Source of the DNA: an uncultured delta proteobacterium
Lineage (GTDB): Bacteria > Desulfobacterota > Binatia > Binatales > Binataceae
Assembly: GCA_963724765.1 (NCBI GenBank)
Contig: CAVRVY010000003.1
Location: 288,001 to 352,000, forward strand
Length of the DNA: 64,000 nt
Direction: 5' to 3'
Numbering within the stretch: position 1 is the stretch's first letter; the number at the start of each line of letters is the position of its first letter. This document shows positions 264 through 15,830 of the stretch, one piece after another. A program made the translations under genes and the position numbers. The notes beneath the pieces were generated by a model. The model was not told where the DNA came from and did no database searches. It saw nothing but the letters and a program-made list of their open reading frames with translations.

Positions 264-908
264 CTAAGCTCTCTTTGTTCCCCACAGCAACCTAGAAAGC
301 GCGCTCATCGCGACAGACCAACACGATTTGAAACTGCCGAGAAAAGCGGGCGGCAAGTGGGGGGAGCGCATGTGCTCACATATGCAGTTGCTGGAATCGG
401 AATCGGTCGAGCGGCAGCCATTGGCGCGCACCGCAGCATAGGCGTCCTTCATCTTCGACCGGGTAAAGTTCTTCGGAAATCTATCTCGATTAGCAAGGGC
501 GTTTGCAATCCGTCCTCTCTCAGGAATGGCCAAAGATATGTTCCAATGATTTTGCCTTGCCCAGTGGCAGGCAAAGCTATCTGCCGTCTGAACCTTCGCT
601 ATGCCCTCTAGTTCGTCCAGAGTGAACGCGAGCAAACATAGACCCTCCACGCGGGTTCCACCCGTCCTGCACCAATTGAGCGCCGTGACAGCGCGAAGAA
701 CGTCTACCGAACCCGTCACATATAAGAGACTCAAAACTCCTCCATCCTCTGAGAGTACATTTTTTTCGATCAGAGCCGCTCGACGCTCGGGAAGGTCTTC
801 TCTAGCGCCGCAGCTAGTTGGTCGATCTACCTTCCGCACGTAGCAGGGAGGATCGATTCCTAGTTTTGTGCGGATGTCGAAATCGTCTTCTACGCTCACC
901 GAAGACAA
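264..908 (-). CDS. Putative ADP-ribosyltransferase-like toxin, last gene of a 3-gene operon
   Basis: N-terminal strand YVRKV, a GVLSLLYV strand and a later NHWNI motif follow the R...S...H pattern of ART-like toxins; starts 9 bp after the upstream stop. Confidence 0.45.
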   Translation of the reverse strand: MSSVSVEDDFDIRTKLGIDPPCYVRKVDRPTSCGAREDLPERRAALIEKNVLSEDGGVLSLLYVTGSVDVLRAVTALNWCRTGGTRVEGLCLLAFTLDELEGIAKVQTADSFACHWARQNHWNISLAIPERGRIANALANRDRFPKNFTRSKMKDAYAAVRANGCRSTDSDSSNCICEHMRSPHLPPAFLGSFKSCWSVAMSALSRLLWGTKRA

Positions 909-917
909 CTAGCGGGC

Positions 918-1862
918 TCAGGTTAGATCCGATGCCAACTCTTCGGCGAGCTCGCGAATGAGTTGCGATCGCTGCGGATCGTTCGCGACCCGCCTGAGGT
1001 CTTCCAGCGCGGCAGAATCGCCAACATCTCCCAGCGCCTGGACCGCAGCTTCTTCGAGAGCAATGAATCTCGATTCAAGAAAATACCTTGGAATTTCGTG
1101 ATCACCCGTTCGCCCAGCGGCCCTGATGAGCGCGTACCAATAGTCATCGTTGTTCCCATCCGGCGTGAACGTGGATAGGCGAGCTCGCGCGACGGCATGC
1201 ACCACATCACGGCCAAGGAGTGCCAAGATATCGATGGTGTCATCGAGCCGTCCCGAGCGATGCACACTGAGAAGTGACCGAATCGCTCGGTCTACATCCT
1301 CTATAGACGCCCCAGCGCGAGTAATAGCGTGAGTCGCTTCAAATTGCGCGCGCACCTTGTCCTGCCCAACCGCTACCCTTACCCGGTCAAGTGCAGCCTC
1401 GATACGCGAAAAGCCATGGGCCGATGCGGCCGCGAGCGACACTGCGCGCCGTGTTTTAGCAACCTGGTTCGGGTGCGCCTTGCATTCGATGATATAGATT
1501 TGGCCTGAATTTACTTTGAGTAGACAGTCCACATCAGCGTTCAGTGACTTGCCGGTCAAGTATGTGCCTTGGTCCACCATCACGGTCGATATCCAATCTA
1601 GAACGGGATACCGATGTGTTGGAGTGGCGATAAGGTGTTTCCCAAGAGACGCAGTGGTCGCAGAATCGGAGACGTAGATCATCTTGATCTCTTCCGGTTC
1701 CGGTTTGGCCAAGCCGACACCGCTTTGGACGGCGTACGACGAATAGCGAAAAGGGGGCAGCGTGCTACCCGCCGATTCCTGTGCGTTGAAAAAGACAGCG
1801 GGAGTTGTGGACCTGCCCTTTCTGAGATCGACATCCTTCAGGTTTTCAACGATTTGCGCCAC
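918..1862 (-). CDS. HEAT-repeat-containing protein (putative antitoxin/partner)
   Basis: C-terminal EEAAVQALGDVGDSAALEDLRRVA is HEAT/PBS-like; start overlaps the upstream stop at 1862. Confidence 0.55.
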   Translation of the reverse strand: MAQIVENLKDVDLRKGRSTTPAVFFNAQESAGSTLPPFRYSSYAVQSGVGLAKPEPEEIKMIYVSDSATTASLGKHLIATPTHRYPVLDWISTVMVDQGTYLTGKSLNADVDCLLKVNSGQIYIIECKAHPNQVAKTRRAVSLAAASAHGFSRIEAALDRVRVAVGQDKVRAQFEATHAITRAGASIEDVDRAIRSLLSVHRSGRLDDTIDILALLGRDVVHAVARARLSTFTPDGNNDDYWYALIRAAGRTGDHEIPRYFLESRFIALEEAAVQALGDVGDSAALEDLRRVANDPQRSQLIRELAEELASDLT

Positions 1863-2623
1863 TAGTGCTGCCTTCCGTTTCCCTCAAAAGCTCGTATGAC
1901 CTTGGAGAGGACCTCCTGAGCATCTTGCAAATCCTTGTCAGTGCTGTCCCGAAAAAGGGGGGTCAGATCAAACTGCTGCACTCCGGGTCCCGAAGGAACT
2001 ATTGGGTGATGCGCATTAATTCCGACGAAAATCATATCGGTACCGCGCACTGACGGTTCCACCGAAACATTCAGATCCCGCCGCCGCTCTGAAAGCGTAT
2101 AGCCGATTTTAGCTGATCGTTCCCCATGGCCCCCCTTGAGGAAGTCGAGCGGTGTCGCGTCAACGATCTGCGCCAAACGAGCTCCAACATTTCCGACACC
2201 GGCTTTGCGATGGAAGTTGAAATTTAAGCCATAGGCGGAAACAGGCGTATGAGCTAGGGCCTCGAAGACGGAGCTTGCGACATCACGGATACGGGGAAGG
2301 AAACTTTGATCATACGTCGAAATCGTCCAACTCTGCTCGAGGCACGTGATCCTTAATTTCCCTGCCGTAAACTGAGCAAACGTAGGGGTACATATGGTCA
2401 TCGTGTCCGTGATCGGCCTCAACCCTTGCTCTCGTTCGGGAATAGGCATGTCGACGGGCGCTTGTGCTTGCCCGCCAGCCAATCCAAAGGAAGCGAGTTC
2501 CTCGTCGGACAAGGCCCCGATCACTTTGTACCATGCAGGATGGTGAATCGCGGGGTTCATATTCCCCGCGACAACGATAAAGTACGCCTCATTTGCGGAC
2601 GCGAATGGGTCGGCTTCAGGCAT
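1862..2623 (-). CDS. Conserved hypothetical protein (TIGR04255-like, possible chaperone/sensor)
   Basis: IVVAGNMNPAIHHPAW N-terminus, HTPVSAYGLNFNF and INAHH motifs; purine-rich RBS upstream. Confidence 0.55.
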   Translation of the reverse strand: MPEADPFASANEAYFIVVAGNMNPAIHHPAWYKVIGALSDEELASFGLAGGQAQAPVDMPIPEREQGLRPITDTMTICTPTFAQFTAGKLRITCLEQSWTISTYDQSFLPRIRDVASSVFEALAHTPVSAYGLNFNFHRKAGVGNVGARLAQIVDATPLDFLKGGHGERSAKIGYTLSERRRDLNVSVEPSVRGTDMIFVGINAHHPIVPSGPGVQQFDLTPLFRDSTDKDLQDAQEVLSKVIRAFEGNGRQH

Positions 2624-2965
2624 TCCTCATCCTTCTGACATCGGCAGCGCCTTTCTGTAACCCAGCGCTGGCACGTAATAAAGCTAGCACAACGCGCCGC
2701 TGGTACGTAAAGGCGTCAGCCCGGCGGCTGGCCCCCCGGCTTAACCAGGCGCGGCCATAATTCTTCAACCGCCGCTTCAAGGCGGCGCGCGTCGAGCAGC
2801 GTCCAAGTCGAGTGGGTCCGCGCGACGACGCCCAGAGACGGCGGGCGGACCCCCTTCTACGAGCCAGAATGGCGGGGCGCTAAGTTTCCGCGTGCCTTTT
2901 CGACCATGGCAAACAGAACTTCTCCTGGTCTCCCCTTGTGTGCCGACCGCGGCGGTGTGAGGTTG

Positions 2966-2981
2966 GCCTAAGCGCATAGGC
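2966..2981. repeat. Dispersed palindrome copy 1 (GCCTAAGCGCATAGGC)
   Basis: One mismatch to CCTATGCGCATAGG; about 16 bp past the stop of ORF 2998-3564. Confidence 0.7.
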
Positions 2982-2997
2982 TGGGAGCAGGGATCCG

Positions 2998-3564
2998 TCA
3001 GCGAAAGAGGCAGAGCCAGCGCGAGCAGCGCCGGCGGTAGGACGATGGCAACGGTCTCGGACCAAGGCCGCGGTACCAGAGCAGCATGGCGGCCAGCGGA
3101 TGGCACTCGACGATGTGACCGTAGCTCCGGGCATCGATGTGGTCCGCAAGGTATACCACCACCGGATAGCCAAGGATCATCAGGACCCAGAACAGCCCGC
3201 AGCCGAGCGCCATCGACACCATGATGAGAGGCCCGGCGCCCGGAGCGAGGACGCCAGGCTGGGGGGACGGCGCAGGGGAGAGCATGAACTCCATCAAGAA
3301 AAACGGCACAAGGAACACACCGGTGCCCAACAACATCAGCCAAGCCCACCGGCGCATGAGCTGATGTGGTTTCGGGGCGCGCGGGGCGAACAGCTCTCGC
3401 AGCGCGCCGCGCCAGCCCTGTTCCCACACCATCGAAATCAGCCCGACGCATGCAAGCAACAGCACGACGATCACGAACCGTTGCTCGAGACTCCCGTGCG
3501 CAAGCATTTCCTCGCAGCGCTGAACGAAGGCCAACATCGCCTTTAGACTGACCTCGACTCGCAC
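2998..3564 (-). CDS. Hypothetical membrane protein (about 3 TM segments)
   Basis: Several hydrophobic stretches; overlaps the end of the upstream ORF. Confidence 0.55.
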   Translation of the reverse strand: MRVEVSLKAMLAFVQRCEEMLAHGSLEQRFVIVVLLLACVGLISMVWEQGWRGALRELFAPRAPKPHQLMRRWAWLMLLGTGVFLVPFFLMEFMLSPAPSPQPGVLAPGAGPLIMVSMALGCGLFWVLMILGYPVVVYLADHIDARSYGHIVECHPLAAMLLWYRGLGPRPLPSSYRRRCSRWLCLFR

Positions 3565-3977
3565 TCTTCGATCAGCCGATCGATTCGTTTGATCACGGTT
3601 CGCGCCTCATCGATAAGATGCTCGATCGCGGATATCGAGCGGCGCGGAATCTGAGCCTTGTTCACTCCCGCCGCGATCATCCCGACAAGGTCAGCATTGG
3701 CGGACTCGAGGTCCTGTTGGATCTTCGCTTCCGCGGCCGTCAACTCATCGAGCGCCACCCGCGGCAGTGAAGCCTGTCGAGCCCGTGCAAACGCGCGCAT
3801 GAGCGTGGGACATATCTCGTCAAGATAGGTTTCCATCAGCGCGAGAAGCAACTTCAGTAGGCCATCGATCTCGCTGCCGTCCACCAGCGCGGTATTCAGC
3901 CGATGCTGAAGAAGCCGGACAAAGGCCAAAACCGCGGCAGCATCAGGATTTGTGGAACCATCAGAGATGCTCGCCAT
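3543..3977 (-). CDS. Hypothetical helical protein
   Basis: 144-aa ORF with ATG start and amphipathic helical composition. Confidence 0.55.
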   Translation of the reverse strand: MASISDGSTNPDAAAVLAFVRLLQHRLNTALVDGSEIDGLLKLLLALMETYLDEICPTLMRAFARARQASLPRVALDELTAAEAKIQQDLESANADLVGMIAAGVNKAQIPRRSISAIEHLIDEARTVIKRIDRLIEECESRSV

Positions 3978-4016
3978 ACGAAACCCCTATGCAGTGACCA
4001 CAGATGTCAGGAAGAA

Positions 4017-4032
4017 TCCTATGCGCATAGGA
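4017..4032. repeat. Dispersed palindrome copy 2 (TCCTATGCGCATAGGA)
   Basis: Perfect 16-bp palindrome, intergenic. Confidence 0.9.
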
Positions 4033-4132
4033 ATAACCGACGATAGCCAAAACCCTCCCACGGGAGAATCAACCCTGACCATGCGCTCTCTCACTGACAT
4101 AATGCATAGGACTCAAGACCTCTGAAGCCCGA

Positions 4133-4462
4133 TTACCCAACCAGGCCACGCGATAGGATTTCTACTTCGCGCCGGCGCTGCTCAAGGTCGACTTCGGCCT
4201 GCGTAGCAGGCAACCCTCGCTCCCGATGCCACCGACGCCAATACTCAGCCAGTCCTTTCCAGGCCGCTTGCAGATTGGGGTATCCCAATTCGCGCTGCTG
4301 CGCAGCAGAGGCTAAGCCGCCGCGACGAGCGAGCATGCGCCTGCCAGCGTGGGCGCGCGCCGCGGGACCGCCTTCTTTGAGCACCTTCCACATCGGCGGC
4401 TGCGGCAGCTTGCGCCGGCGGCGGGGGCGATGTGAGATTTGAGGATCGAAAGCGAACGACAT
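4133..4462 (-). CDS. Small basic hypothetical protein
   Basis: 109-aa Arg-rich ORF with ATG start. Confidence 0.45.
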   Translation of the reverse strand: MSFAFDPQISHRPRRRRKLPQPPMWKVLKEGGPAARAHAGRRMLARRGGLASAAQQRELGYPNLQAAWKGLAEYWRRWHRERGLPATQAEVDLEQRRREVEILSRGLVG

Positions 4463-4556
4463 GGCGTAGCATACATCGCGGAGCGCGGCGATTCATCGCG
4501 CCTGAGTAACGACACTCGTCGCCGATTCCTCACGGCCGGCCATCAGACGCGTGGAC

Positions 4557-4571
4557 TCTATGCGCATAGGA
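4557..4571. repeat. Dispersed palindrome copy 3 (TCTATGCGCATAGGA)
   Basis: One mismatch to consensus, intergenic. Confidence 0.85.
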
Positions 4572-4583
4572 TGAGCAGCGAAC

Positions 4584-4700
4584 GCTGACGCGGCTTTTCT
4601 GTCACCGCTTTCGGGCCAATGAGGTGCGACTATAGTTGAGCGTCATCGCCTATAACCTGGGAACTTGTGGCGGCGGCTTGCGCTGCCGACGCGGGTGGCC
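4584..4700 (+). pseudogene. IS1380-family transposase C-terminal remnant
   Basis: Translates LTRLFCHRFRANEVRL*LSVIAYNLG, then LWRRLALP after a frameshift; this is the typical IS1380 C-terminal motif. Confidence 0.7.
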
Positions 4701-4903
4701 ACCGGAGCGGCAAAATCAGCCGCAAAAATGCTGGCGACCATCGCCATCGAGCTTTGGTCCTCTCGTTGCTCGCGTACGGGCGGATGTTGCAGAAGCGCAA
4801 CTCAATGTGGAGGAGAGTGGGCGAGAAACCATACGGAATCCAAAGATAATAGTGCGAATCGCGCTAGAAAATTGCCGGGCATCAATCCTGCTGTGACGCC
4901 CCG

Positions 4904-5611
4904 GTGATGAAAAATCTTGCAATTATTTGCTTGGCGGTCGGCGGCGGGTTTGCCTTGATGGTGGCGGCTTTTGGCCCGGCTTACGCCGAAAACGCTGCGA
5001 CCGGATCAACCTCCCCCAAGTTTACAGTCTGCTCTGGTCAGACTTACGCGCTTTGCGCCACCGCAAGCTGCTTTGTATTGGACGATGTCGCTTACTGCAA
5101 GTGCGATGTGGAGTCGGGTGACAGCATTAGCCTGTCCTACTCGTTCGGCAATGGCGAGAACGTCTGCTCAGTGAACGCCGAGGGTGCAGCAAACGGTTAC
5201 ATGGTAAGCACTTTCAGTGTACCCGACTCGGTCATCGCGCCGAACGGAAACGAGGCCCTTTACACCTGCCCGGCCAGCACTTCCAATGGAGCATACGCGC
5301 AGTGCGATGGAGGGTTGTGCTTCACAGGTAGCGAAGGGCAATCCTTTCCCGGTTTTAGCGGGCCCCTGACTGCCAGCGAGGTCATCTGTTCTTGCCCCAT
5401 TACCGTGGCCGACCCGGCCACAGCGCTGGTTGGCTACCAGATCGCCGGTCCGTACCCTTGCCAGAAATCTTTCTTCAAAAACTGCTGGAAGAAGATGGCC
5501 AACAAGCATACCGGCTCGCAGATCTATGTCGGCGCGCCGACCGGCACGGCGCGCCTCTTGGCCGGCCTGCTAAACGGAAGCGTCCCGACGTTGAACCAAT
5601 GCCGTCCGTAG
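4904..5611 (+). CDS. Secreted cysteine-rich hypothetical protein
   Basis: Signal peptide ending AYA; many Cys (YALCATASC, CDGGLC, CSC). Confidence 0.75.
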   Translation: MMKNLAIICLAVGGGFALMVAAFGPAYAENAATGSTSPKFTVCSGQTYALCATASCFVLDDVAYCKCDVESGDSISLSYSFGNGENVCSVNAEGAANGYMVSTFSVPDSVIAPNGNEALYTCPASTSNGAYAQCDGGLCFTGSEGQSFPGFSGPLTASEVICSCPITVADPATALVGYQIAGPYPCQKSFFKNCWKKMANKHTGSQIYVGAPTGTARLLAGLLNGSVPTLNQCRP

Positions 5612-5848
5612 CACCGCAAAACCCAAAGCAAGGCCCATTCATTTGGGCTACATTGAAGCGCATCGGTAGGTTTTGAATGCTTTAGCCAAGAAGAAAGCCG
5701 TCGATGTCTTCCTTCCGCACTCCGGCGACACATCTAGGGCTGCCAGCTTCGACTTGATGTCCGGCAGCAACTCGTTAATGAGCCTTTAAACCTTTCGGGT
5801 TCGGCTCGAGAGCACCGAAATCAATGCCTGCGTGAGGGGGGAAATATC

Positions 5849-6232
5849 GTGCGCATATCCACAGTCTTTGGCAGCGCCGCGTTGGTCGCGGCTCTATGCC
5901 TGATCGGGTGCAGCGAAATGCAAGTGCCGGCGATGGATCAAGCTCAGGCTGACGTTTACAACCACTGCATGGGTAGCCACTGGTCCACTCTTGCCGATAG
6001 TGCTCTTTTTGGTTTCGCTGGCTATGAGTATCATCAGAATCAGGTATTGAACTGCCAACAGGTGGCGCTCACCCCTCGAAACCCAGCAAGCTCCGACCAA
6101 CCCGTCAAGTCCGCTTCGGTGCCGGTTGCGGTGACCGCGGCCACACCTGCCGCACCTGCAACCGCGACGGCCAATCCGGGTTTACCCATAGGTGCGGGTT
6201 CACCGGGGAACGAGTGGCAACCCGCGCAGTAG
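5849..6232 (+). CDS. Putative lipoprotein
   Basis: Lipobox-like LIGC after a hydrophobic leader; GAGGGGG RBS; Pro/Ala-rich tail. Confidence 0.7.
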   Translation: MRISTVFGSAALVAALCLIGCSEMQVPAMDQAQADVYNHCMGSHWSTLADSALFGFAGYEYHQNQVLNCQQVALTPRNPASSDQPVKSASVPVAVTAATPAAPATATANPGLPIGAGSPGNEWQPAQ

Positions 6233-6298
6233 CGAGGGTCGATCTCAACTGAACCAGAGGCGGCGGCAACTCTCCTCAGTTCGACCAGGTAGACGGAT

Positions 6299-6314
6299 TC
6301 CTATGCGCATAGGA
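6299..6314. repeat. Dispersed palindrome copy 4 (TCCTATGCGCATAGGA)
   Basis: Perfect 16-bp palindrome between convergent genes. Confidence 0.9.
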
Positions 6315-6341
6315 TTCGCTGAGCCTTGCGGACTGCTTTAG

Positions 6342-6800
6342 CTAGTTCAGCAGGGAGACGCTAGCGAGAAAAGCGTTCAGGCGTGCCGTGTGGGAATTCA
6401 GGGCCGGGATCAGCGCTTCGATTTGAACCGTCGCCGCTGCGACCATTCGGCGCAGCGATAAAGAAGTGAACCGGTTGAACTGGTCGGGCCACGTGCAGCA
6501 GTACTGTTTGCAGCAGGCGATGATCGCCGCATCCGCAGCCACGAGTTCGTCACAGAGACGCACACCCTCGGCATTTAGCTCGGCCGGAAATAGCTCGTAG
6601 CGATCCGCAAGCGTCACCTCCAGCCGTTTCACGGCCTCGCCGAACGGCGGTCGCGCTTTGTCTACCAGCTCGTCGACGAGCCGATCGAATGGGTCAAAGT
6701 AGGAATCAACCTCAGGCTCCGTGTCGATCGGCTTGAGCGGCCTGCGCTCCCGCTCGACTCGCTGTTGGCGGCTCCGCCGGTTGCTGCTCGCTCTCGGCAT
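6342..6800 (-). CDS. Hypothetical protein, divergent from alpA
   Basis: ORF 6342-6893; probable ATG start at MPRASS. Confidence 0.5.
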   Translation of the reverse strand: MPRASSNRRSRQQRVERERRPLKPIDTEPEVDSYFDPFDRLVDELVDKARPPFGEAVKRLEVTLADRYELFPAELNAEGVRLCDELVAADAAIIACCKQYCCTWPDQFNRFTSLSLRRMVAAATVQIEALIPALNSHTARLNAFLASVSLLN

Positions 6801-6971
6801 GGATGGACTCTGGCCTATCTTTCGCGCATGTGTCAAGTGATAGGCCGTGTATCGGATAGTCAATGTGGTATCTAGTACGATAGCGTTAATCAAGTGGCTT
6901 GACTGAGGTTGTCAGTTGCGGGGATCATCTTGGAGACCAGAGCCGCGCACAGCGGCACGGAGGGAAGCCAA

Positions 6972-7175
6972 ATGGGTAATGAGGAGCGGTTACTTTCGCA
7001 AAGCGAGGCGGCAGAGTTTCTCAATATCCAGCCTCGCACTTTGGAGGCCTGGAGGCAGCGTGGAGGGTTTGGGCCGAAGTTTATTCGATATTCCGGACGT
7101 TGCGTCAGGTATCGGTTGAGCGACCTCCAATCCTGGATAGCGGCGCGCGAAGTAGGTAGCGAGGCGGCCGCGTGA
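6972..7175 (+). CDS. AlpA/excisionase-family helix-turn-helix protein
   Basis: LLSQSEAAEFLNIQPRTLEAWRQRGGFGPKFIR...VRYRLSDLQSWI is the HTH_17/AlpA pattern; GGAGGG RBS. Confidence 0.85.
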   Translation: MGNEERLLSQSEAAEFLNIQPRTLEAWRQRGGFGPKFIRYSGRCVRYRLSDLQSWIAAREVGSEAAA

Positions 7176-7179
7176 CGGG

Positions 7180-8274
7180 TTGAACCCTGAAAATGGAAAG
7201 CCCGGCGGGCTAAACCGGGCTCAGAAGGAGAAACGAACTGTGATGGACACAAGCGTACTGAGTTTTCGGAATGAATGTCAAGAGTTGGAGCGGCGCCGAA
7301 CTGCCGATGAGCGTCCTAGCCGCGACCCCGAGCGCGTCGCGCGCAACCTGGCGCGCGCTTTCAATCCGTGGCGCACGTTTCGCCGCTACAGCATCGTGCC
7401 AAACTGCATAATGGAGCGAGATGACCTTTCGGACGGCGCCAAGCTCGTCTATGCGAGACTGATGCAGTTCGGCGGCAAAGGCGGAGATTGTCATCCCTCA
7501 TACGAAAGGCTCGCCAAGGCGGTAGGAAAGAAGCACCGCCATACGGCGATGCGAGCCGTCGAAGAACTCGAGAACAAGGATTTGCTCGTCGTGCTATCGC
7601 CCGAGCCGGGCAAGCGGAAGTCGGCCGGATTCGTCTTCGTCTGGCAGCCGTGGATGGACGCAGATGAGGACCGGGCAGAGGCGGTGACAGGTCGCAAGGT
7701 TGCGACTGGTGAGGTCGCAAGGTTGGGACTGGTGACAGGTCGCAAGATTGCGACCCTAAAAGAATCCTCTTCTGAAAAGACTCCCAGAAAAGAACTTACG
7801 TACGATCTGGAGTTCGAGAAGACATGGAATGCATACCCCAACAGATCGGGATCTAACCCTAAACCCAGAGCTTACCGAGCATGGTTGAAACAGGTCAGTA
7901 GGGTAGAGATCTCCGATCGCTACAAACGGATCGCGGAAATACATGCCGGCGTCGAACGCTACCGGGGCGTCTGCGACGACACCAACACGACCGGCACGCA
8001 GTACGTCATGCTGGCCGCTCGCTTTTTCGATGAAGAACAGTGGTGCGAGCCGTGGGACATCCCGGCGCGGAAGCGATGGGATGATGAGCCGGAAGTCGTG
8101 CCGCCGCCCTACCTGCCTAAAGAGCCGCCCGAGGCGGAGATGCACGAGAAGCATACGGCGCGGCACAAGGAATTCATGGAGCAACTCAACGCCGCCGATC
8201 GAACGAAGCTCGCATCGTATTTGCGCAGACAGAGCGAGGCTTCGATGAACGGAGCAGCCAGCGCAGCGGCATGA
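7180..8274 (+). CDS. Phage-type replication initiator (N-terminal winged HTH, lambda-O-like layout)
   Basis: LSDGAKLVYARL...CHPSYERLAKAVG...AVEELENKDLL HTH; FEKTWNAYP..SNPKPRAYRAW C-domain; internal iterons. Confidence 0.75.
   Translation: MNPENGKPGGLNRAQKEKRTVMDTSVLSFRNECQELERRRTADERPSRDPERVARNLARAFNPWRTFRRYSIVPNCIMERDDLSDGAKLVYARLMQFGGKGGDCHPSYERLAKAVGKKHRHTAMRAVEELENKDLLVVLSPEPGKRKSAGFVFVWQPWMDADEDRAEAVTGRKVATGEVARLGLVTGRKIATLKESSSEKTPRKELTYDLEFEKTWNAYPNRSGSNPKPRAYRAWLKQVSRVEISDRYKRIAEIHAGVERYRGVCDDTNTTGTQYVMLAARFFDEEQWCEPWDIPARKRWDDEPEVVPPPYLPKEPPEAEMHEKHTARHKEFMEQLNAADRTKLASYLRRQSEASMNGAASAAA
7683..7755 (+). repeat. Three iteron-like repeats (putative replication origin inside rep)
   Basis: GGTGACAGGTCGCAAGGTTGCGACT, GGTGAGGTCGCAAGGTTGGGACT, GGTGACAGGTCGCAAGATTGCGACC, followed by an A-rich tract. 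Confidence 0.75.
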
Positions 8275-8283
8275 AGGCGCGAA

Positions 8284-8299
8284 CCTTATGCGCATAGGA
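8284..8299. repeat. Dispersed palindrome copy 5 (CCTTATGCGCATAGGA)
   Basis: Near-consensus; about 10 bp after the rep stop. Confidence 0.85.
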
Positions 8300-8342
8300 A
8301 TGAAAGCCCAAGGTAAACAACCGACTTTTTCGGAGTAAAAGC

Positions 8343-8984
8343 ATGCACGTCGCAATCGCTCACTCACTGCTCGCCCACTCGTGGATCGCGGGGCTCCTGT
8401 TCCCGATTATTGGGCAATCACTCACGAGCGCTCTCTCGGGCACTAATTTGACGAGCCTCCTCACCACGTTGCTGACTGCGATGGCGGGCATAATTCCCGG
8501 CGCGACGCAGAATCAGGAGAACCTGCAGCAGCAGAGCAGTCAGCGGCAATTGTCCGCGAGCGATTTAGCGACCAACCCCAACACCTTCTCGTCGCAGTTG
8601 AGCAACTTGCTCGGCGTGACCGGGGCGAGCGCCGGACCAAACAGCACGGGCGCGAATGGCGCGGGCACGAATACGATTGCAGGGATGCTCCAGAAGCTCA
8701 TCAGCAGCTTCACCGGCAGCTCCAGCCAGAACTTGACGAACAACGTCTGGGAGCAGCTTCAACCGCAACTTGCATCTGCCGGACTTGGGCAGGCCCCGGG
8801 CGTGGCCAATGAAGAACTAGCGACCGCGTTGGCGCCGAATCAGATCCAAGAGCAGACCCTGGGCGCGGAGGAAGGGGCCGGCGCGCTTCAATCAGCGCTC
8901 CAGACCGAAGAGACGAACCTTCAGTTTCCTTTTCAAATTGGGAGCCAAGCGGCGAGTTCCTTCCCGAGCTTCGCGACGCTGTAG
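8343..8984 (+). CDS. Putative virion DNA-ejection/pilot protein (Gln/Ser/Gly-rich with hydrophobic N-terminus)
   Basis: Composition typical of podovirus ejection proteins; co-oriented with the SLT gene; GGAG RBS. Confidence 0.45.
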   Translation: MHVAIAHSLLAHSWIAGLLFPIIGQSLTSALSGTNLTSLLTTLLTAMAGIIPGATQNQENLQQQSSQRQLSASDLATNPNTFSSQLSNLLGVTGASAGPNSTGANGAGTNTIAGMLQKLISSFTGSSSQNLTNNVWEQLQPQLASAGLGQAPGVANEELATALAPNQIQEQTLGAEEGAGALQSALQTEETNLQFPFQIGSQAASSFPSFATL

Positions 8985-8992
8985 GAGGGTGA

Positions 8993-11404
8993 GTGTCTAC
9001 GCAGCCGACATTCGACGACCTCATCCAGGCAATGATCCAAAGCGAGAGCAGCGGTCGCCCAGATGCCCGCGGTGCTAAGGGCGAGCTTGGTCTTCTCCAA
9101 ATCATGCCGAAGACCGCCAAGGATTACGGCATCACCGATCCCCGCATGCTGCTTGACCCGAAGATAAACAAGGCCGTCGGCTCGCGTATCCTCATTGACC
9201 TGCTGAAGAAGTATCGCGGCGACGTGCACAAGGCGCTCGAGGCGTACAACGCCGGCCGCGGGCGAGTCGATAAGGGTCGCGTGCCGGCGTCGAGCATCGC
9301 TTACGCGGACAAGGTAATCGGACGCGCGGGCGCTCGACCTTCGGCTGCGGAGACGGCAACTCGCGCAACCGTCGGATCGCAGACGCCGCGATTTTCGGCG
9401 AGCATGATGGAGAGCGCGCCGCCTTCTCCGGGCGCGGCTGGCGAGAGTCTGCGCGAGCGTTTGCTCCGAGTTTTCGCTCCTGCATCGGCCTCGGCTGCTG
9501 AAACGTCGAACGTCAAAGAGATCCCGAGCGTCGGACCTCCCGCTGATGTCGATACACGGATCGCGGCGAAGCTAGCGGACCGCAGCGTCAGCCCGTCCGA
9601 CATCGACGCCCGAATCGAAGCGAAGCTAAGGGGCGGGACTTCGAGCGCCGCGCCGGCGAAGACTGCACGAGGCGTGCCGATTCCGCCCGGCGCAAAGGTC
9701 GGCGGCGCCCGTACGGGCACCGTGCCAATTCCGCCGGGGGCTAGCATCGGCGCACCCGTTACCGGCGCTGGCCCAACCGGAAAGCCGCTGCCGCTTGCCG
9801 TCCGTGCTGCCGACTGGCTACCGATGGCCGGTCAGATCGGCGGCGAATTGGCCGGCGGCGCTCTTGGCATTGAGAGCGGACCGGGCGACATCGCGGCCAT
9901 TGGAGCGGGCGGTGGTTTGGGCGAAGGCTTGGGCGCGGAGGCGGACACTGGCGTGCGCGCGCTCTATGGCCAGCCCTACAAGAGCCAACCGCAGCTCGCC
10001 AAGGAAGCGGGAGAAGCGGCCGGCATCAGCGGCGGCGGCGCGTTGATTACGCCCGCGCTCAAGATCATCGCTCCATCTAAACTCAAGGCTGCCATTGAAG
10101 CCTCGCGCGCCTACAAGTCGGCGGGAGCGGCGGCCGAGGACGTGACGACGAAGCTACGCAACCTGCTCGGGATGGACGCCGATACGGCCCTGCAGACGAC
10201 GCTTTCGCCGCAAGCCAAGGCCGACCTTGCGGCAGCATATGCGGGCGCCCGCCGCGCCGGTTTCGACCAGATCAGCAAAGTCTACCAAGACGTGCTCGGC
10301 CCCTACTTTCATCGCATGACCCCAAACGCATCGGCGAAGGCTTTTAGCGACTTCGCGAACAAACACGGCGCGCAATCCGTCAGGCTGCTCGACGGCGGAA
10401 TCGACTTCACCCGGCCGACCGTCCGCATGATCCAGCAGTTCAGGAGCAATGTCGCAAAAGCGATGCGTCAGGCCAACATGGACCGTGACCGCGCGCTGAT
10501 CGGCGACCTCTACAAGCTCGAGCACACCGCGGACTCCGACATCAAGGCAGTCCTTCCCGCTGACCGCGCGCTCCGCTACGACCGCATCAACGCCGCGCGC
10601 GCCGACTTCAGCTCACAGATGCCCGGTGCCAAACTGCGCGCGATGTGGAACGCGCCGAGCTCCAGCAAGGCGATCGAGGAAATCCTCAAAAGCGACCCAC
10701 GCCAGATCGCTACGCTGCTCCGCAACGTCGACCAGCTACCGGCCCGCGATCGCGTTAAGGCGCTGACCAGTCTTAAAAACGCGACCGGCGCATGGATCTA
10801 TCGCCAGGCTGCGAACATCCCGAAGTCCGAAGGCCAGGCGGCGGCTCTCGAAGCGTTCGGCAAGGCGGTTCACGACGTACCCGACGCGGCCTTCGCTCGA
10901 CTCTACGGCCCCGGCACCAAGGAGCGGATGGAGGCCGCGACCGATGCGACGCTTCGATTCCACGAGAAGATGTTGCGCTATCCAAACCTCGCGATGGCCG
11001 TGGCTGCGGAAGTAAGGGCGAGACCGATGCCGTGGATCGTGAAGCACGCTCACTATGCAGCGTTCTACGCGCTCTATCCGCTGATTCGCGGGAACCCGGA
11101 GGAAGCCGCACTCGCGCTCGCGATTGGCTTCACGCCAATCGGATTGCACGCGATGCTCGACAATCCCGCCATGCAGGCGCTCTACATCCGCGCGCTCACG
11201 GCCAAGGATCCGAAAGCGATCGCGGACGGGATACGCACGCTGTTGACCGCGCTGGCGGCCCAGGAGCTCCGCGAGCCAATGCCCAAGACGCCACCGCCAG
11301 CACCCCCCGGAGCGCCGCCACCAGGAGCAACGCCAGCCGGAATGCCAGCCAGGATGCCGGCGCCGGGCGCGCGACCGTCAGGGATGCCGGGAATGCTGCC
11401 ATGA
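8993..11404 (+). CDS. Lytic transglycosylase (SLT) domain fused to a long Ala/Gly-rich region; probable virion ejection protein
   Basis: IQSESSG, GELGLLQIMPKT and ALEAYNAG are SLT motifs I-III; Gly-rich hydrophobic hairpin; GGAGG RBS. Confidence 0.8.
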   Translation: MSTQPTFDDLIQAMIQSESSGRPDARGAKGELGLLQIMPKTAKDYGITDPRMLLDPKINKAVGSRILIDLLKKYRGDVHKALEAYNAGRGRVDKGRVPASSIAYADKVIGRAGARPSAAETATRATVGSQTPRFSASMMESAPPSPGAAGESLRERLLRVFAPASASAAETSNVKEIPSVGPPADVDTRIAAKLADRSVSPSDIDARIEAKLRGGTSSAAPAKTARGVPIPPGAKVGGARTGTVPIPPGASIGAPVTGAGPTGKPLPLAVRAADWLPMAGQIGGELAGGALGIESGPGDIAAIGAGGGLGEGLGAEADTGVRALYGQPYKSQPQLAKEAGEAAGISGGGALITPALKIIAPSKLKAAIEASRAYKSAGAAAEDVTTKLRNLLGMDADTALQTTLSPQAKADLAAAYAGARRAGFDQISKVYQDVLGPYFHRMTPNASAKAFSDFANKHGAQSVRLLDGGIDFTRPTVRMIQQFRSNVAKAMRQANMDRDRALIGDLYKLEHTADSDIKAVLPADRALRYDRINAARADFSSQMPGAKLRAMWNAPSSSKAIEEILKSDPRQIATLLRNVDQLPARDRVKALTSLKNATGAWIYRQAANIPKSEGQAAALEAFGKAVHDVPDAAFARLYGPGTKERMEAATDATLRFHEKMLRYPNLAMAVAAEVRARPMPWIVKHAHYAAFYALYPLIRGNPEEAALALAIGFTPIGLHAMLDNPAMQALYIRALTAKDPKAIADGIRTLLTALAAQELREPMPKTPPPAPPGAPPPGATPAGMPARMPAPGARPSGMPGMLP

Positions 11405-11424
11405 TTCCGCGTGACGGAAATGCA

Positions 11425-11438
11425 TCCTATGCGCATAG
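11425..11438. repeat. Dispersed palindrome copy 6 (TCCTATGCGCATAG)
   Basis: About 20 bp after the SLT gene stop. Confidence 0.85.
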
Positions 11439-11627
11439 CGGCCATCTTCCGGGGCTGGACGGCGATGGAGACGTGCCGGCGTGCGCGCAGACACTCAAGG
11501 CGCGCGAACTCCCTTCGTCGATGCCCGCGAGACCATGCGATGCCGAACAAAACTCGGCCTCTGGCGCGTCGCGCCGCGGCGCGGCACCACAGGTAGCGGC
11601 GAAACCGGCAGAGGGAGGCTTTTGCTG

Positions 11628-12035
11628 ATGTACGCCGATGAACTCCGTTCGATGTTCTGCGAGGTTGCCGGAATTTCTAGCTTGGAACTCGCGACCGAGC
11701 AGTGGGCCTCTCGACTCGGGATAATCTTCTCCGAAATCGGCCAGCCGCTCGCCAAGGTGATTCAACGTCGACGCGACCAAGGGCGCAGCAAAGGGCCAAG
11801 CATCACCTTCGTTCGGGCCTGGGTTGCGAAGCTGTGCAAGCGCCTCGAGACCGACGCCGACGAACGCGAGCGGATCGCGCAACTCAAGACTGCTCTCGCT
11901 GAGAGGGTTTATGAGATTCAGACGGCGAAGGCCGCCGGGGTTACGAAGTCGCGCGTTGCAGTCGCGGCTCAAGTGCGCGCGCGCGTCTGTCGTGCGGCGC
12001 ATGAGTCCAGCGCGGTCACCTTGAGCGGTAGCTAA
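11628..12035 (+). CDS. Hypothetical phage protein
   Basis: GGAGG RBS before the ATG (MYADELR), in frame with ORF 11481-12035. Confidence 0.55.
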   Translation: MYADELRSMFCEVAGISSLELATEQWASRLGIIFSEIGQPLAKVIQRRRDQGRSKGPSITFVRAWVAKLCKRLETDADERERIAQLKTALAERVYEIQTAKAAGVTKSRVAVAAQVRARVCRAAHESSAVTLSGS

Positions 12036-12096
12036 CGAATGGGCGCCCGTGCGCGTGCTGGCCGCACAACATCAAACTTCGACGGAGGTCGAGACA

Positions 12097-12234
12097 ATGA
12101 GACGGAAAGATGAGAGTCCGATGGAAGAGGCCGAAAAGAAAGTGGTCGAGCGCACCAGCGGGCGGCACTCGCGCCGGCATCACGCACGCGGCGTCAAGCG
12201 GGTCAGGCGCCGTAAGGTCGCTCGATCCAGCTAG
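12097..12234 (+). CDS. Small Arg/His-rich (protamine-like) protein
   Basis: GGAGG RBS; GRHSRRHHARGVKRVRRRKVARSS. Confidence 0.5.
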   Translation: MRRKDESPMEEAEKKVVERTSGRHSRRHHARGVKRVRRRKVARSS

Positions 12235-12244
12235 CCCAAGTTCC

Positions 12245-12517
12245 ATGAGCCTACCAAACCCGCCCCTGCCGGCAGCGGCCCAGCTCGCACGCTGTCGTTG
12301 GAGCGCAGAGTCTTCCGACCAGGACGCGCGCAAGGCAGCGGCGCAGGCGCTCGCAAATCGCCGCTGGGGAAAGTCGACGGCGGAGGAACGTGCGGCGTTC
12401 GGGCTGAAGCTCAGACAGGCGCGGGCCAAACACCGACGCGCCCCAACAGCCGCGCAAGTATCCGGGCTCCTGACCTCGCGGCGCGGGAAACCCAGCGCGG
12501 CGCCCTCGGGCGAGTAG
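12245..12517 (+). CDS. Small basic hypothetical protein
   Basis: ARKAAAQALANRRWGKSTAEERAA, resembling small basic phage proteins. Confidence 0.5.
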   Translation: MSLPNPPLPAAAQLARCRWSAESSDQDARKAAAQALANRRWGKSTAEERAAFGLKLRQARAKHRRAPTAAQVSGLLTSRRGKPSAAPSGE

Positions 12518-12522
12518 CTGAG

Positions 12523-12540
12523 TTCCTATGCGCATAGGAA
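12523..12540. repeat. Dispersed palindrome copy 7 (TTCCTATGCGCATAGGAA)
   Basis: Perfect 18-bp palindrome between the stop at 12517 and the ssb start at 12547. Confidence 0.9.
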
Positions 12541-12546
12541 TCTGAT

Positions 12547-13026
12547 GTGAACAGGATCGTTCTCTTTGGCCGACTTGGGCGTAACCCGGATCTGCGGGTC
12601 GCGCACCCGGTTTGCCGATTCTCGCTGGCGGTCCACGAGCCCTACACCGACAGCGGCACGGGCGAGAGGATCGAGCGCGTCACGTGGTTCCAAATCGTGG
12701 CGTGGGACCGGCTTTCTGAGATCGCGTCGCAGTATTTGCACAAGGGCGACCAGGTTCTGGTCGAGGGCCGAGTTCAGCTTCGCGAGTTCAAAGGCAGAGA
12801 CGGAACCAAGCGCGCGATGCTCCAGGTGATCGCTCACCGGCTCGAGTTCGGCGCCAAGTCACGGCGCACCGATGCGGACAACCCCGCGCCGGCCGACGAC
12901 CACGATCGCGACGGCGAAGACGCGCCGATAGATTTCACCGAGGACTTAGAGGGCTTCACCGATGACCTAGCGGCCGATGGTGCGGAAGACTTGACAGCGC
13001 TCGACGACGACAGCTTCCCGGTCTGA
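12547..13026 (+). CDS. ssb: Single-stranded DNA-binding protein
   Basis: NRIVLFGRLGRNPDLR, TWFQIVAW, YLHKGDQVLVEGR; acidic tail ending DDDSFPV. Confidence 0.93.
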   Translation: MNRIVLFGRLGRNPDLRVAHPVCRFSLAVHEPYTDSGTGERIERVTWFQIVAWDRLSEIASQYLHKGDQVLVEGRVQLREFKGRDGTKRAMLQVIAHRLEFGAKSRRTDADNPAPADDHDRDGEDAPIDFTEDLEGFTDDLAADGAEDLTALDDDSFPV

Positions 13027-13050
13027 AGTCAGGAATGGCCGCCACGAGCC

Positions 13051-13338
13051 TCAGTGCTGGTAGGGGAGTTGGTTTGACCCCGTATTAACGCTGTAGGCAT
13101 TCAAGCCTTGCAGGATGGCTGAACAAGACGACGGATCGTCAGGGTGGGCATCCACGCATTTTCGATAATCCGCGAGCAGCGCGTTTTGCGCCGAGGCGGA
13201 TCGATTCACTTCACAGTTGTTGACGTCGCCGGCGGTAACTGCGACCCAGCGGCACGGATCGTCGGGCGTCAGACCGGCCATGCAACCCGAAATGAGCAAG
13301 CCCATAAGCGCGAGCGCGGCAGAGTAGCGAAGTTTCAT
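13051..13338 (-). CDS. Small lipoprotein, translationally coupled to the integrase
   Basis: MKLRYSAALALMGLLISGC lipobox; ATGA overlap with the integrase stop. Confidence 0.65.
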   Translation of the reverse strand: MKLRYSAALALMGLLISGCMAGLTPDDPCRWVAVTAGDVNNCEVNRSASAQNALLADYRKCVDAHPDDPSSCSAILQGLNAYSVNTGSNQLPYQH

Positions 13339-14528
13339 CGCCCTTGCTCCAAAAGCCTGCCGTCTTCGACATGCTCCGGTCGGGCGGATTGCTCCGTGCC
13401 GGCCAGCATCAGCGCGGCGTTCCTCTCGAGCGCCTCGCGCACAGGGTCCAATTGCAGTCGTGCATATACTGCGGTGCTGACGGAATTGGAATGATTCAGC
13501 GCGCGTCCGATGAGCGGCAGGCTGTAGCCCTGTGCGGCAAGCCACGACCCGAGCGTCCTGCGCAGGTCGTGAACGCGCACATCGGGTACACCAGCGCGCC
13601 CGCGGATGCGCTGCCAGGCGCTTGCGACCTCGACCAGATGGCCCGTGGCGCCGCGGCTTGGGAATAGCCACTCGCTCTCACCGTGGCTCGGCAGCGTGCG
13701 AAGCATCTCAGCGGCCGGCGTCGGCAGCGGTAGCAGATGCGATCGCCCAGCCTTGGTTATCGGCAGCCGCAGCGTCCGCTGCTCCAGGTCGACGTCCGCC
13801 CAGCGCGCCGCCAGCATCTCAGTCTTGCGCGTCCCAAGCATCAGGCTCAGCGGAAAGTACGCACGCCAACGCCAGTCCGGCTCAGCGGCAAGCGCGTTGT
13901 TGACCCGGCGCAGCTCATCAGGCGATAGAAAGCGCTCGCGCGGTTCCTCGCGGAATAGCTTGATGCGTGCGGCCGGATTCTCGCCGGCATGCAGCTTCAA
14001 ATCATGGGCGATGTTGAACATCGTGCGCAGCAGAACCGTGGTGCGGTTGCTCTCGTACAGGCCACGCTCGCGCCGGATGACCTGTTGCATGGTCACGAGC
14101 TCATCGCGCGGAATGTCGCTCAGTCGGCGGGTTCCAAACCGCGGCACGAGATGCGCGTTGATTCGGCGTTCGTCCTCGCGCCAGGACTTCTTGTGCGGCT
14201 TCGCGTGCCTCTCCAGATACTTGTCCGCCAGCACCGTGAAGGTCGGCTCGTTGTGCTCGTTGTGCCGCGTTTCAGCCGGGTCTTTGCCCTCGGCGACAGC
14301 GGCCTTTATGGCGAGAACCTTACGACGCGCCGCAAGAACACTCAGCGCAGGGAACGGCCCGATCGTCACGCGGCGCATGCGACCTCTCACCCGCCCTTCC
14401 CACACGAAGGCCTTGGCGCCACCGGCGGTTATCCGCAGTGCGAAGCCCTTGAAGTCATCATCGCGGATGAACGCCTGTCCTGACTCCGGTGCTCTCGCTC
14501 GCTCAGCCACTAGCTTGGTGATTTTCAT
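13335..14528 (-). CDS. int: Tyrosine recombinase/integrase (P4-like, with arm-binding domain)
   Basis: GFALRITAGGAKAF...TIGPFP arm domain; GTRKTE, HDLRRT, LNHS and VY catalytic motifs. Confidence 0.95.
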   Translation of the reverse strand: MKITKLVAERARAPESGQAFIRDDDFKGFALRITAGGAKAFVWEGRVRGRMRRVTIGPFPALSVLAARRKVLAIKAAVAEGKDPAETRHNEHNEPTFTVLADKYLERHAKPHKKSWREDERRINAHLVPRFGTRRLSDIPRDELVTMQQVIRRERGLYESNRTTVLLRTMFNIAHDLKLHAGENPAARIKLFREEPRERFLSPDELRRVNNALAAEPDWRWRAYFPLSLMLGTRKTEMLAARWADVDLEQRTLRLPITKAGRSHLLPLPTPAAEMLRTLPSHGESEWLFPSRGATGHLVEVASAWQRIRGRAGVPDVRVHDLRRTLGSWLAAQGYSLPLIGRALNHSNSVSTAVYARLQLDPVREALERNAALMLAGTEQSARPEHVEDGRLLEQGR

Positions 14529-14665
14529 TTGTAGGCATAGTGTAGGCGATATGCACAGTTGAAGCCAGTAGATGAGGGTACACAATCAGAGCGAAATACT
14601 ATCGAAGCGATTAGTAAATCGTAGGCTATCGGACGTAGTGAGAAACTATCAGAGTATTCAGATTG

Positions 14666-14713
14666 TGAATGGCATTCAGGAGGTCGCGCGTTCGATCCGC
14701 GTCAGCTCCACCA
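14666..14713 (+). repeat. att site: 3' half of tRNA-Ala(GGC), copy 1
   Basis: TGAATGGCATTCAGGAGGTCGCGCGTTCGATCCGCGTCAGCTCCACCA contains anticodon loop, T-arm and CCA; the 5' half is absent. Confidence 0.9.
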
Positions 14714-14856
14714 ATAAAATCAAGGTTTTTTCCGTTATCGCGGTCGCTTCCAATCTGGCTTAGGTAGCAAATAGGTAACTGCGCTCGGTCTGCTGGGGTG
14801 CGAAATCAGCATCAGGCTCGTGCGCGCCCGTGCTTGTCTGGATGCGCCAGGTGGAC

Positions 14857-15323: not shown

Positions 15324-15830
15324 TCAGGTGAGCGTGCCGTTCGTGGCAGGGGGTGGCGGCGCGCTGGCTGGCGCGGGCGAGGATGCGGCTGCCTCGATCT
15401 CTTCCGCGGTGGCATTGGCCAGCGCGAGCCATCGCGACTCACTGACCTTGCGGGCGGCATCGTATCGCAACGCGCGCTCGGCGGCCGGCGAGAGGCCAAG
15501 CTGCGCGGCGAGTTGCCCGAGGCGGGCGGCGATGCGCGTGAGCTGATCAGCGATCGCATTCGGCCGGCCCAGCTCGTCGACGGGCTCCGCCTTTACGCCG
15601 TGGAGGTCGACGAAGCGCACCCAGAGCGCGCCATACGTGTAAAGCAGTGTCGCGAAGTGGGGGGCCTCGAGCCAAGTGGCATGCTTCCGGATCTTCCGCA
15701 CGACTCGGACGCGCTCATCGCGCTTGCGCGCAGCGCGCGATGGGGTCGGTCGGGCTGGGGCCAGTTCGGTCACTTTCTCACCGTTCATTACTGCCGATAG
15801 TGGAATGCTGTCGCGCGGTCTGGAAGCCAA
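15324..15830 (-). CDS. Putative phage terminase small subunit (P27-like)
   Basis: C-terminal LGQLAAQLGLSPAAERAL resembles the GL(T/S)PAxR motif of P27-type TerS. Confidence 0.45.
   Translation of the reverse strand: MASRPRDSIPLSAVMNGEKVTELAPARPTPSRAARKRDERVRVVRKIRKHATWLEAPHFATLLYTYGALWVRFVDLHGVKAEPVDELGRPNAIADQLTRIAARLGQLAAQLGLSPAAERALRYDAARKVSESRWLALANATAEEIEAAASSPAPASAPPPPATNGTLT

Follow-up and report, generated by a model that had tools for sequence, protein, structure and literature searches.

Why would a mobile element carry one short palindrome in gap after gap between its genes? We met this question in a 64,000-nucleotide stretch of contig CAVRVY010000003.1 (positions 288,001 to 352,000), from an uncultured delta proteobacterium of the family Binataceae; the whole stretch is referred to here as the window. 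Towards its left end, the window contains an integrated element with integrase, replication and single-strand-binding genes, and copies of the palindrome CCTATGCGCATAGG are spread along it. A first-pass annotation of this DNA had noticed the copies and offered three readings for them, namely a distributed operator network, a self-marking signal of satellite DNA, and sites for module exchange by recombination. We find that the sites are real, element-specific in the window and exclusively intergenic. From their sequence and placement we favour, at slightly under an even chance, the reading that they form a dispersed operator or roadblock network, read by a dimeric DNA-binding protein.

Seven intergenic copies of one palindrome

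A search of the window for CCTATGCGCATAGG with up to 2 mismatches returned exactly 7 matches, 3 of them exact and 4 with one mismatch, all confined to positions 2967-12538 (Table 1). The annotation thus had the counts right, and its coordinates, which mostly give the first base of the 16-mer, were 0 to 2 bases off. In 100 dinucleotide-preserving shuffles searched at the same tolerance the chance expectation was 0.16 matches and 7 was never reached (0/100), in line with the earlier view that the motif should be far rarer by chance. No copy (up to 2 mismatches) is present in the approximately 52 kb of the window outside the element, as had also been claimed; at 3 mismatches, just three additional, degenerate matches appear (at 31725, 36960 and 52644), all of them outside the element. 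The central 10-mer TATGCGCATA occurs 6 times in the window, each time inside the element. Around the exact copies the symmetry is perfect over 16 bp at copies 2 and 4 (the latter at 6299-6314) and over 18 bp at copy 7, and at site 6300 the palindrome grows to 22 bp if one mismatch is allowed. Other words common to the intergenic gaps of the element were looked for, and none of note was found.

All seven copies are intergenic, as annotated, under gene calls that rest on open reading frames (ORFs), GC content at third codon positions (GC3) and homologues. With non-coding DNA amounting to 2193 of the 10711 nt between 2624 and 13334, the probability of 7/7 is about 1.5e-5. The copies are found one to a gap, in 7 of the 11 gaps of at least 29 nt. 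Five of them (2967, 6300, 8285, 11426 and 12525) lie 7-28 nt past a stop codon, that at 6300 between convergent stops, while those at 4018 and 4557 are upstream of starts. In two large gaps (2624-2997, 374 nt, and 11405-11627, 223 nt), the copy is close to the upstream stop and not to the downstream start. The copy at 4018 also follows the stop of 4133-4462(-), at a distance of 101 nt. The right arm of the palindrome at 12525 supplies the AGGA that serves as Shine-Dalgarno sequence of ssb, 8 nt before its GTG start. The gene map itself needed one correction: the single ORF that had been drawn at 11628-12517 contains 6 stops and consists of two ORFs, 11628-12035 and 12110-12517.

The two arms of each copy give 14 half-sites, and their comparison shows that 5'-CCTATGC-3' (positions 1-7 from the centre) is near-invariant, with conservation peaking at the centre. 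Further out, there is T at position 8 (9/14), A or T at position 9 (12/14), A at position 10 (7/14) and G at position 11 (8/14). At sites 4018 and 6300, the arms differ at position 9 in a non-complementary way; the position therefore reflects a preference for certain bases and is not constrained by pairing. Nor is there compensation for the mismatches at 2967 (A.A) and 11426 (C.C), and the half-sites vary independently. In addition, the 155-nt gap (3978-4132) around site 4018, for which approximately 0.019 isolated half-sites are expected, holds two (CCTATGC at 3986, GCATAGG at 4104); the Poisson chance of at least 2 is about 2e-4. It is the sequence of the palindromes, and not their foldability, that is conserved. 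Sequence conservation at the centre, half-sites that vary independently and auxiliary half-sites are what one would expect of a dimeric DNA-binding protein, and not of an RNA hairpin.

A further repeat was seen in the divergent control region between alpA and the gene at 6342-6800. At 6812-6846, 12 nt upstream of the 6342-6800 start, there is a split inverted repeat, GGCCTATC-N19-GATAGGCC, the arms of which have CCTAT/ATAGG in common with the palindrome half-site and the spacer of which includes GCGCAT. This repeat could represent a diverged version of the palindrome site, an alternative site or a coincidence.

A putative operator network and its candidate binders

Under the operator reading, one homodimeric and sequence-specific protein, supplied either by the element or by a helper, would recognise a full site of about 16-22 bp in which the halves (G)AWTCCTATGC and GCATAGGAWT(C) meet at the centre. 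The promoter-proximal sites (4557, and 4018 together with the half-sites on either side of it) would repress initiation, and the five sites 7-28 nt past stops would stop or insulate read-through between modules. The outcome would be an integrated element that is kept silent, one module at a time. Among the three readings of the annotation, this is the one that the conserved sequence, the independent and auxiliary half-sites and the distribution of one site per gap favour; self-marking and recombination have less support.

As to the protein, we infer that gp11628-12035 or gp4133-4462 may be the binder. The first is a lead only, and comes from structure prediction. The start of this 135-residue ORFan at 11628 is supported by six homologues that align from residue 1, and its AlphaFold model, built from a 7-sequence alignment, has a predicted local distance difference test score (pLDDT) of 74.6 and a predicted template-modelling score (pTM) of 0.58. 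The model consists of a helical N-terminal domain (approximately 100 residues, DnaA-domain-IV-like), followed by a long helix of residues 77-131. Its top neighbours in the PDB are DnaA DNA-binding domains on DnaA boxes (3pvp, 1j1v and 8btg), with target-normalised template-modelling scores of 0.61-0.64 (3pvp, 1j1v) and, for the longer chain of 8btg, 0.20; the root-mean-square deviations are 3.3-3.9 Å and the E values 1.7-4.0. Of the 50 BFVD matches listed, 18 are to small phage proteins that carry the name DnaA or DnaA C-terminal, all at E > 0.1. The weak candidate gp4133 is a basic protein with a conserved core that begins at M24, and its gene is bracketed by sites 4018 and 4557. A search of the ESM Atlas with gp4133 gave a best score of 0.81, which is at chance level. 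Comparison of the ORFans with Pfam (E up to 10), NCBIfam, PADLOC and both PDB sequences and PDB profiles returned sub-threshold matches only, including a weak PADLOC match of gp3543 (PDC-M07A, E 0.001).

Several observations weigh against an operator network of this kind. A promoter scan gave 3 matches at sites versus 2.9 expected, and nothing consistent. Among the 108 ORFs of at least 45 residues in 2593-14763, Pfam finds no ParB, KorB, CI/Cro or ribbon-helix-helix (RHH) domain, and the DNA-binding matches in the element are limited to the AlpA HTH_17, the Rep HTH_36, the integrase and SSB. The resemblance of gp11628 to DnaA domain IV has Foldseek E values of 0.28-3.3 and no support at the sequence level; the model of gp4133 is poor (pLDDT 65, pTM 0.26) and matched no structure in the fold search. 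No copy of the palindrome is present in the central control region, from which alpA and gp6342 diverge, a situation unusual for the operators of a master repressor. Finally, the site at 12525 includes the ssb Shine-Dalgarno sequence, where a role at the RNA level is possible. PHROGs also assigned none of the 19 element proteins to a repressor family, a search that distant homologues could escape.

Alternative explanations

Transcription of the palindromes would yield an intercistronic hairpin or sequence tag, which might act as a processing site, as a translational operator or coupling element, as a weak terminator that is overridden by an AlpA-like antiterminator, or as the target of a small RNA that itself contains this self-complementary sequence, after the manner of the immunity that phage P4 owes to its CI RNA. 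The stop-proximal position of five of the seven sites, also within the two large gaps, would suit such a role, as would the Shine-Dalgarno function of the right arm at 12525 and module ends that have no canonical terminator. The C-to-T variants at 4557 and 8285 retain a G.U pair in the plus-strand RNA, and an AlpA protein has been described as an antiterminator in Pseudomonas aeruginosa. The folding data, obtained for 44-nt windows around each palindrome, argue otherwise. The palindrome hairpins have energies of -6 to -13 kcal/mol, and the minimum free energy structure omits the palindrome in 3 of the 7 plus-strand folds (4557, 8285 and 11426). Five of the seven are no better than those of shuffled sequences (z > -1); of the other two, 4018 (z about -2.2) alone clearly surpasses its shuffles, and 6300 has z = -1.5. 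A U-tract follows none of the 7 copies, none of the 17 terminator-like matches in our scan is at a palindrome, and Rfam families are absent from the region at E up to 1, one chance-level match aside. The 444-nt gap that holds site 4557 (4463-4906) folds no better than its shuffles either (z = +1.58). An intrinsic terminator or other stable hairpin was rejected on the weak stems, the missing U-tract and folds that mostly do not surpass those of shuffles. The pairs broken without compensation at 2967 and 11426 and the non-complementary preference at position 9 also count against pairing, two of the sites (4018 and 4557) precede gene starts, and that at 6300 serves both strands. Overall, we regard a function in RNA as rather unlikely.

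Three further explanations concern the DNA itself. The copies could be centromere or clamp-loading sites akin to parS or OB, to which a ParB-family protein from the host or a helper would bind, with partition, condensation or silencing of the excised replicon as the purpose. In its central 10 bp, TATGCGCATA, the motif is identical to the core of the 16-bp parS of Burkholderia cenocepacia chromosome II, given as gTTTATGCGCATAAAc in a table of the review PMC7022226, and the statement in the annotation that the motif does not match parS was thus too strong. Moreover, parS and OB have the architecture of a continuous palindrome in common with the element sites, and with its own Rep, iterons and SSB the element probably replicates as a plasmid after excision. 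Nevertheless, ParB, KorB and ParA domains are encoded by none of the 108 element ORFs, and among the 33 further proteins of the window that were scanned, none has a ParA or ParB-family domain. The outer bases of the half-site are not the same (TCC here versus TTT in that parS), and parS sites normally form clusters close to an origin or par operon and are not distributed one per intergenic gap, all of which makes this explanation improbable. We would give similarly little weight to the proposal that the palindromes are site-specific recombination sites for a tyrosine recombinase, bounding exchangeable cassettes in the familiar layouts of pdif and attC. Each can be divided into two inverted arms of 8 bp with TGCGCA as the 6-bp spacer between them. 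The palindromes bracket modules and mostly come right after the stop of a gene, like attC, and it is their central 6-10 bp that vary least, as would be required of an overlap region. The sequence TATGCGCATA(A) is the XerC arm of the Methylococcus capsulatus dif site, TATGCGCATAA, in a published table. The relatives of the element appear mosaic as well (14 clusters for gp4133, 4 for the SLT protein and one, at 74%, for Rep), a mosaicism that is inferred from proteins and not from the DNA of the relatives. Against recombination, no copy is accompanied by an XerD-type arm or a second half, the att site of the element's integrase is dissimilar to the palindrome, the element has no second recombinase, and isolated half-sites suit a binding protein better than a crossover site. 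Seven symmetric sites in a 10-kb replicon would also permit the deletion or inversion of essential modules. The last explanation, that the palindromes mark the element for packaging, ejection or protection by a helper phage, or are a host repeat of the repetitive extragenic palindromic (REP) type that happens to be concentrated in the element, is very improbable in our view. The element is capsid-less and satellite-like, with int, alpA, rep and ssb and no capsid or terminase matches, and the motif is strictly element-specific in the window. However, the pac and cos signals known to us are single sites, and a marking signal has no reason to shun coding DNA so strictly. A REP origin is at odds with the copy-free flanking chromosome (approximately 52 kb) and with the absence of a second exact 16-mer from every genome of the 185,579 species representatives.

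Relation to known dispersed sites

Repressor operators that recur intergenically across the genomes of temperate phages are exemplified by the CIRs of phiC31 and the C1 operators of phage P1, the sequences and repressors of which are unrelated to those of the element. Intrinsic terminators and REP sequences are, like the element sites, palindromes that follow genes; the element sites differ from them in having weak stems, no U-tract, folds that mostly do not surpass those of shuffles and no spread over the flanking chromosome.

Closer parallels are provided by three systems. The stoperators of Cluster A mycobacteriophages (L5 gp71-type) are more than 20 13-mers, located at promoters as well as in the short gaps between co-directional genes, and a block to both initiation and elongation has been proposed for them; they are asymmetric, with an orientation that follows transcription, and are bound by a monomer, as the pertinent section of PMC9283540 sets out. 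The element resembles them in having many copies of one short site over a mobile genome, at promoters and in intergenic spaces (same source). It differs in that its sites are palindromic, which implies a dimer and independence of orientation, in having 7 copies and not more than 20, and in the absence, by PHROGs or Pfam, of a homologue of the immunity repressor, in which an HTH is combined with a stoperator domain. On the IncP plasmid RK2, the KorA operator OA (TGTTTAGCTAAACA) and the KorB operator OB (TTTAGCGGCTAAA) are continuous palindromes that are scattered, some of them kilobases from promoters, according to the relevant text of PMC11790492. The continuous 12-16-bp palindrome conserved through its centre is shared with these operators and with ParB-parS (PMC11790492), and the identity of the central 10 bp extends the likeness to the B. 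cenocepacia parS (PMC7022226), from which the outer bases diverge. By contrast, the element has no ParB/KorB CTPase, KorA or ParA, and has one site per gap, mostly after a stop. The third parallel is SPBRE, a conserved repeat of the Bacillus prophage SPbeta that in silico analysis located in many of the intergenic regions of this integrated element. Its binder MrpR, a catalytically dead protein with an unexpected fold, that of a tyrosine recombinase, was found 24 years later, and SPBRE is located in promoter regions, as described in the part of PMC10516654 devoted to it. The element sites, on the other hand, are mostly stop-proximal. A second difference is that the only tyrosine recombinase of the element presumably keeps its catalytic boxes, with the R..HxxR..H..Y residues present in the translation of 13335-14585 as judged by eye against the customary motifs.

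The element thus works like these dispersed operator sets and is not a member of any, given that the cognate binder families were not found in it. To call it an undescribed system, as the annotation did, overstates the case, since dispersed intergenic operator sets are known. A more specific proposal goes further, namely that modules are silenced and insulated by a dimeric protein of no known family (gp4133 or the DnaA-domain-IV-like gp11628), acting at one site in nearly every gap between modules, mostly 7-28 bp past a stop, on an orientation-independent, palindromic type of stoperator that works as a roadblock terminator in a new family of capsid-less, mostly ORFan integrative elements. This we consider conceivable and doubtful.

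Occurrence elsewhere and relatives of the element

The exact 16-mer TCCTATGCGCATAGGA was found in the 185,579 species-representative genomes at 25 loci, on 25 different contigs and in many phyla. Approximately 139 occurrences would be expected at random in 596 Gb, and the 16-mer is therefore rare everywhere. Within 2 kb of the 25 loci there is no second palindrome copy (up to 2 mismatches), and none of 19 element proteins had a tblastn match (E < 1e-3) at these loci. With 25 singletons on separate contigs, no species representative carries TCCTATGCGCATAGGA as a genomic repeat or cluster. The three exact copies of the window itself are not among the 25 loci, the source genome being absent from the collection or masked in it.

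Phage and plasmid collections gave a similar picture. Megablast of 2600-14720 against the phages found no match; tblastn of Rep and the SLT protein against the phages found distant matches only (at most 28-39% identity), to the Rep core or the SLT domain, and tblastn of gp4133 against both the phage and the plasmid collections found none. A 32-nt query around site 6300, which is sensitive to matches of about 17 nt or more, gave partial matches of 17-20 nt in phages and plasmids, in 1-2 places per record and mostly within genes. The confinement of the motif proposed by the annotation therefore holds in the window, and it extends to the species genomes, where no other cluster was found, and to the phage and plasmid collections at a sensitivity of about 17 nt. 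Among the papers searched in full text, 12 print the central 10-mer, none of them in the context of such an element; the two that are relevant are those with the B. cenocepacia parS and the M. capsulatus dif site.

Relatives are known as metagenome proteins only, a few dozen in all, and suggest an element family that is rare but real. Of the four element proteins searched, gp4133 has the most homologous clusters, 14, with 71-88% identity in the best BLASTP local alignment and on contigs of up to 29 kb. By the same measure, the SLT protein has 4 relatives with 47-88% identity over residues 300-803; gp11628 has six, at 41-77% identity, and Rep a single one, at 74%. A relative of gp4133 (P0010) and one of the SLT protein (P0028) are both on contigs of 29,495 nt, and no Rep relative was found on a contig this long. 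This uneven distribution of homologues across the element proteins hints that the relatives are mosaic. Four gp4133 relatives have been called with N-terminal extensions of 23-43 residues that run into the DNA upstream. A palindrome in frame would be translated there as PMRI(G/E) or SYAHR, and both are absent; only P0011 and P0015 reach an equivalent distance.

Organisation of the element and its surroundings

Table 1. Palindrome copies, isolated half-sites, genes and right border of the element, with positions in the window (a dot marks sites without a strand).
Feature	Position	Strand	Remarks
Copy 1, CCTAAGCGCATAGG (1 mismatch)	2967-2980	.	17 nt past stop of 2998-3564(-) membrane-protein gene; leftmost copy
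Membrane protein	2998-3564	-	No family in any library
ORFan (gp3543)	3543-3977	-	No family in any library
Isolated half-site CCTATGC	3986-3992	.	32 bp left of copy 2, in the 155-nt gap
Copy 2, exact 14-mer, 16-bp palindrome 4017-4032	4018-4031	.	40 nt upstream of 3543-3977(-) start
Isolated half-site GCATAGG	4104-4110	.	Right of copy 2, in the 155-nt gap
Basic helical ORFan gp4133	4133-4462	-	Bracketed by copies 2 and 3; no family
Copy 3, TCTATGCGCATAGG (1 mismatch)	4557-4570	.	94 nt upstream of 4133-4462(-) start, in the 444-nt non-coding gap
Secreted, Cys-rich ORFan	4907-5611		No family in any library
Lipoprotein	5849-6232	+	No family in any library
Copy 4, exact 14-mer	6300-6313	.	Between convergent stops of 5849-6232(+) (67 nt) and 6342-6800(-) (28 nt)
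ORFan (gp6342)	6342-6800	-	No family in any library
AlpA-like HTH_17 (excisionase-family) gene	6973-7175	+	Start 6973 probable; heads plus-strand operon punctuated by copies 5-7
Replication initiator (rep), HTH_36, phrog_270, lambda-O-like	7180-8274	+	Pfam, PHROGs
Copy 5, CTTATGCGCATAGG (1 mismatch)	8285-8298	.	10 nt past rep stop, 44 nt before 8343-8984 start
ORFan	8343-8984		No family in any library
803-residue protein, SLT lytic transglycosylase domain in first ~130 residues	8993-11404	+	Remainder without known family
Copy 6, CCTATGCGCATAGC (1 mismatch)	11426-11439	.	21 nt past SLT-domain gene stop, 188 nt before 11628-12035 start
135-residue ORFan gp11628	11628-12035	+	No family; copy 6 in upstream gap
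ORF of uncertain reality	12110-12517		No family in any library
Copy 7, exact 14-mer, 18-bp palindrome 12523-12540	12525-12538	.	7 nt past 12110-12517 stop; fills 29-nt gap between 12110-12517 and ssb
SSB gene (ssb)	12547-13026	+	Pfam, PHROGs, NCBIfam
Tyrosine integrase (int), Arm-DNA-bind_3 + Phage_integrase	13335-14585	-	Pfam, PHROGs, NCBIfam
44-bp att-type direct repeat, 3'-end-like of tRNA/tmRNA (T-arm, acceptor CAGCTCC, ACCA or ACCC)	14669-14712	+	Right border of the element

With int, alpA-like, rep and ssb genes and no capsid, terminase or tail match inside the element (Pfam, PHROGs), a capsid-less, satellite-like nature is plausible. A further 88 ORFs of at least 45 residues, taken from all frames of 2593-14763, have no Pfam match. 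Three tandem iterons of approximately 24 nt (GGTGACAGGTCGCAAGGTTGCGAC and variants), unrelated to the palindrome, lie inside rep at 7683-7754 and by their position indicate a lambda-O-style origin within the initiator gene.

The att repeat at the right border has a second copy at 33579-33622, exact over 44 bp and, like the first, without similarity to the palindrome. Both copies are fragments, and the window contains no intact transfer RNA (tRNA) or transfer-messenger RNA (tmRNA) gene. Towards the left, the search for a further att copy gave just a weak, chance-level alignment at 2775-2803. The repeats suggest tandem islands downstream of a tRNA or tmRNA gene to the left of the window. Between the two att copies, approximately 19 kb hold a Kdp operon, an IS630-type transposase and a truncated sigma-54 activator. 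Short inverted word matches, TCGATCCGC and CGCAGTTACC, connect the gap between ssb and int (13196-13258) with the att region (14692-14783); these words are possible binding sites of the integrase. The stretch to the left of the first palindrome, 264-2623(-), comprises three genes of lower GC3 and is without the motif. One of the three has weak HEAT-repeat matches, and none matches a defence system or other family; they may be cargo or flanking island DNA.

Several features elsewhere in the window deserve mention. Just outside the att repeat, the ORF at 15324-15830(-) has a weak match to a small terminase (Terminase_4, E 0.0036, below the Pfam cut-off) and may be the remnant of a second phage-related island. 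At 18926-19648 and 20186-21292, a sigma-54 activator ORF that begins at position 65 of the AAA+ profile, its N-terminus missing, adjoins an IS630-type DDE_3 transposase, and looks like a regulator disrupted by insertion. The KdpC ORF at 27848-28870 has 340 residues, about twice the usual size, with two stretches that match the 182-position KdpC profile; it may have arisen by duplication or fusion. A fluoride riboswitch (RF01734, 53.5 bits) is found at 29983-30048, upstream of genes for a dynamin-family GTPase and a major facilitator superfamily transporter.

Implications

Dispersed operator sets being known already, what stands out here is the palindromic, stop-proximal layout of the sites, the prospect of an ORFan binder and the rarity of the element family. 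If the palindromes are roadblock operators, one protein would both silence and insulate each module, in a compact manner that is independent of orientation. Next to the monomeric stoperator system there would then be a second solution, based on a dimer and a palindrome, and at least one family of ORFans would gain a function. The palindrome is, moreover, a sharp marker with which to find and delimit this family of elements in metagenomes.

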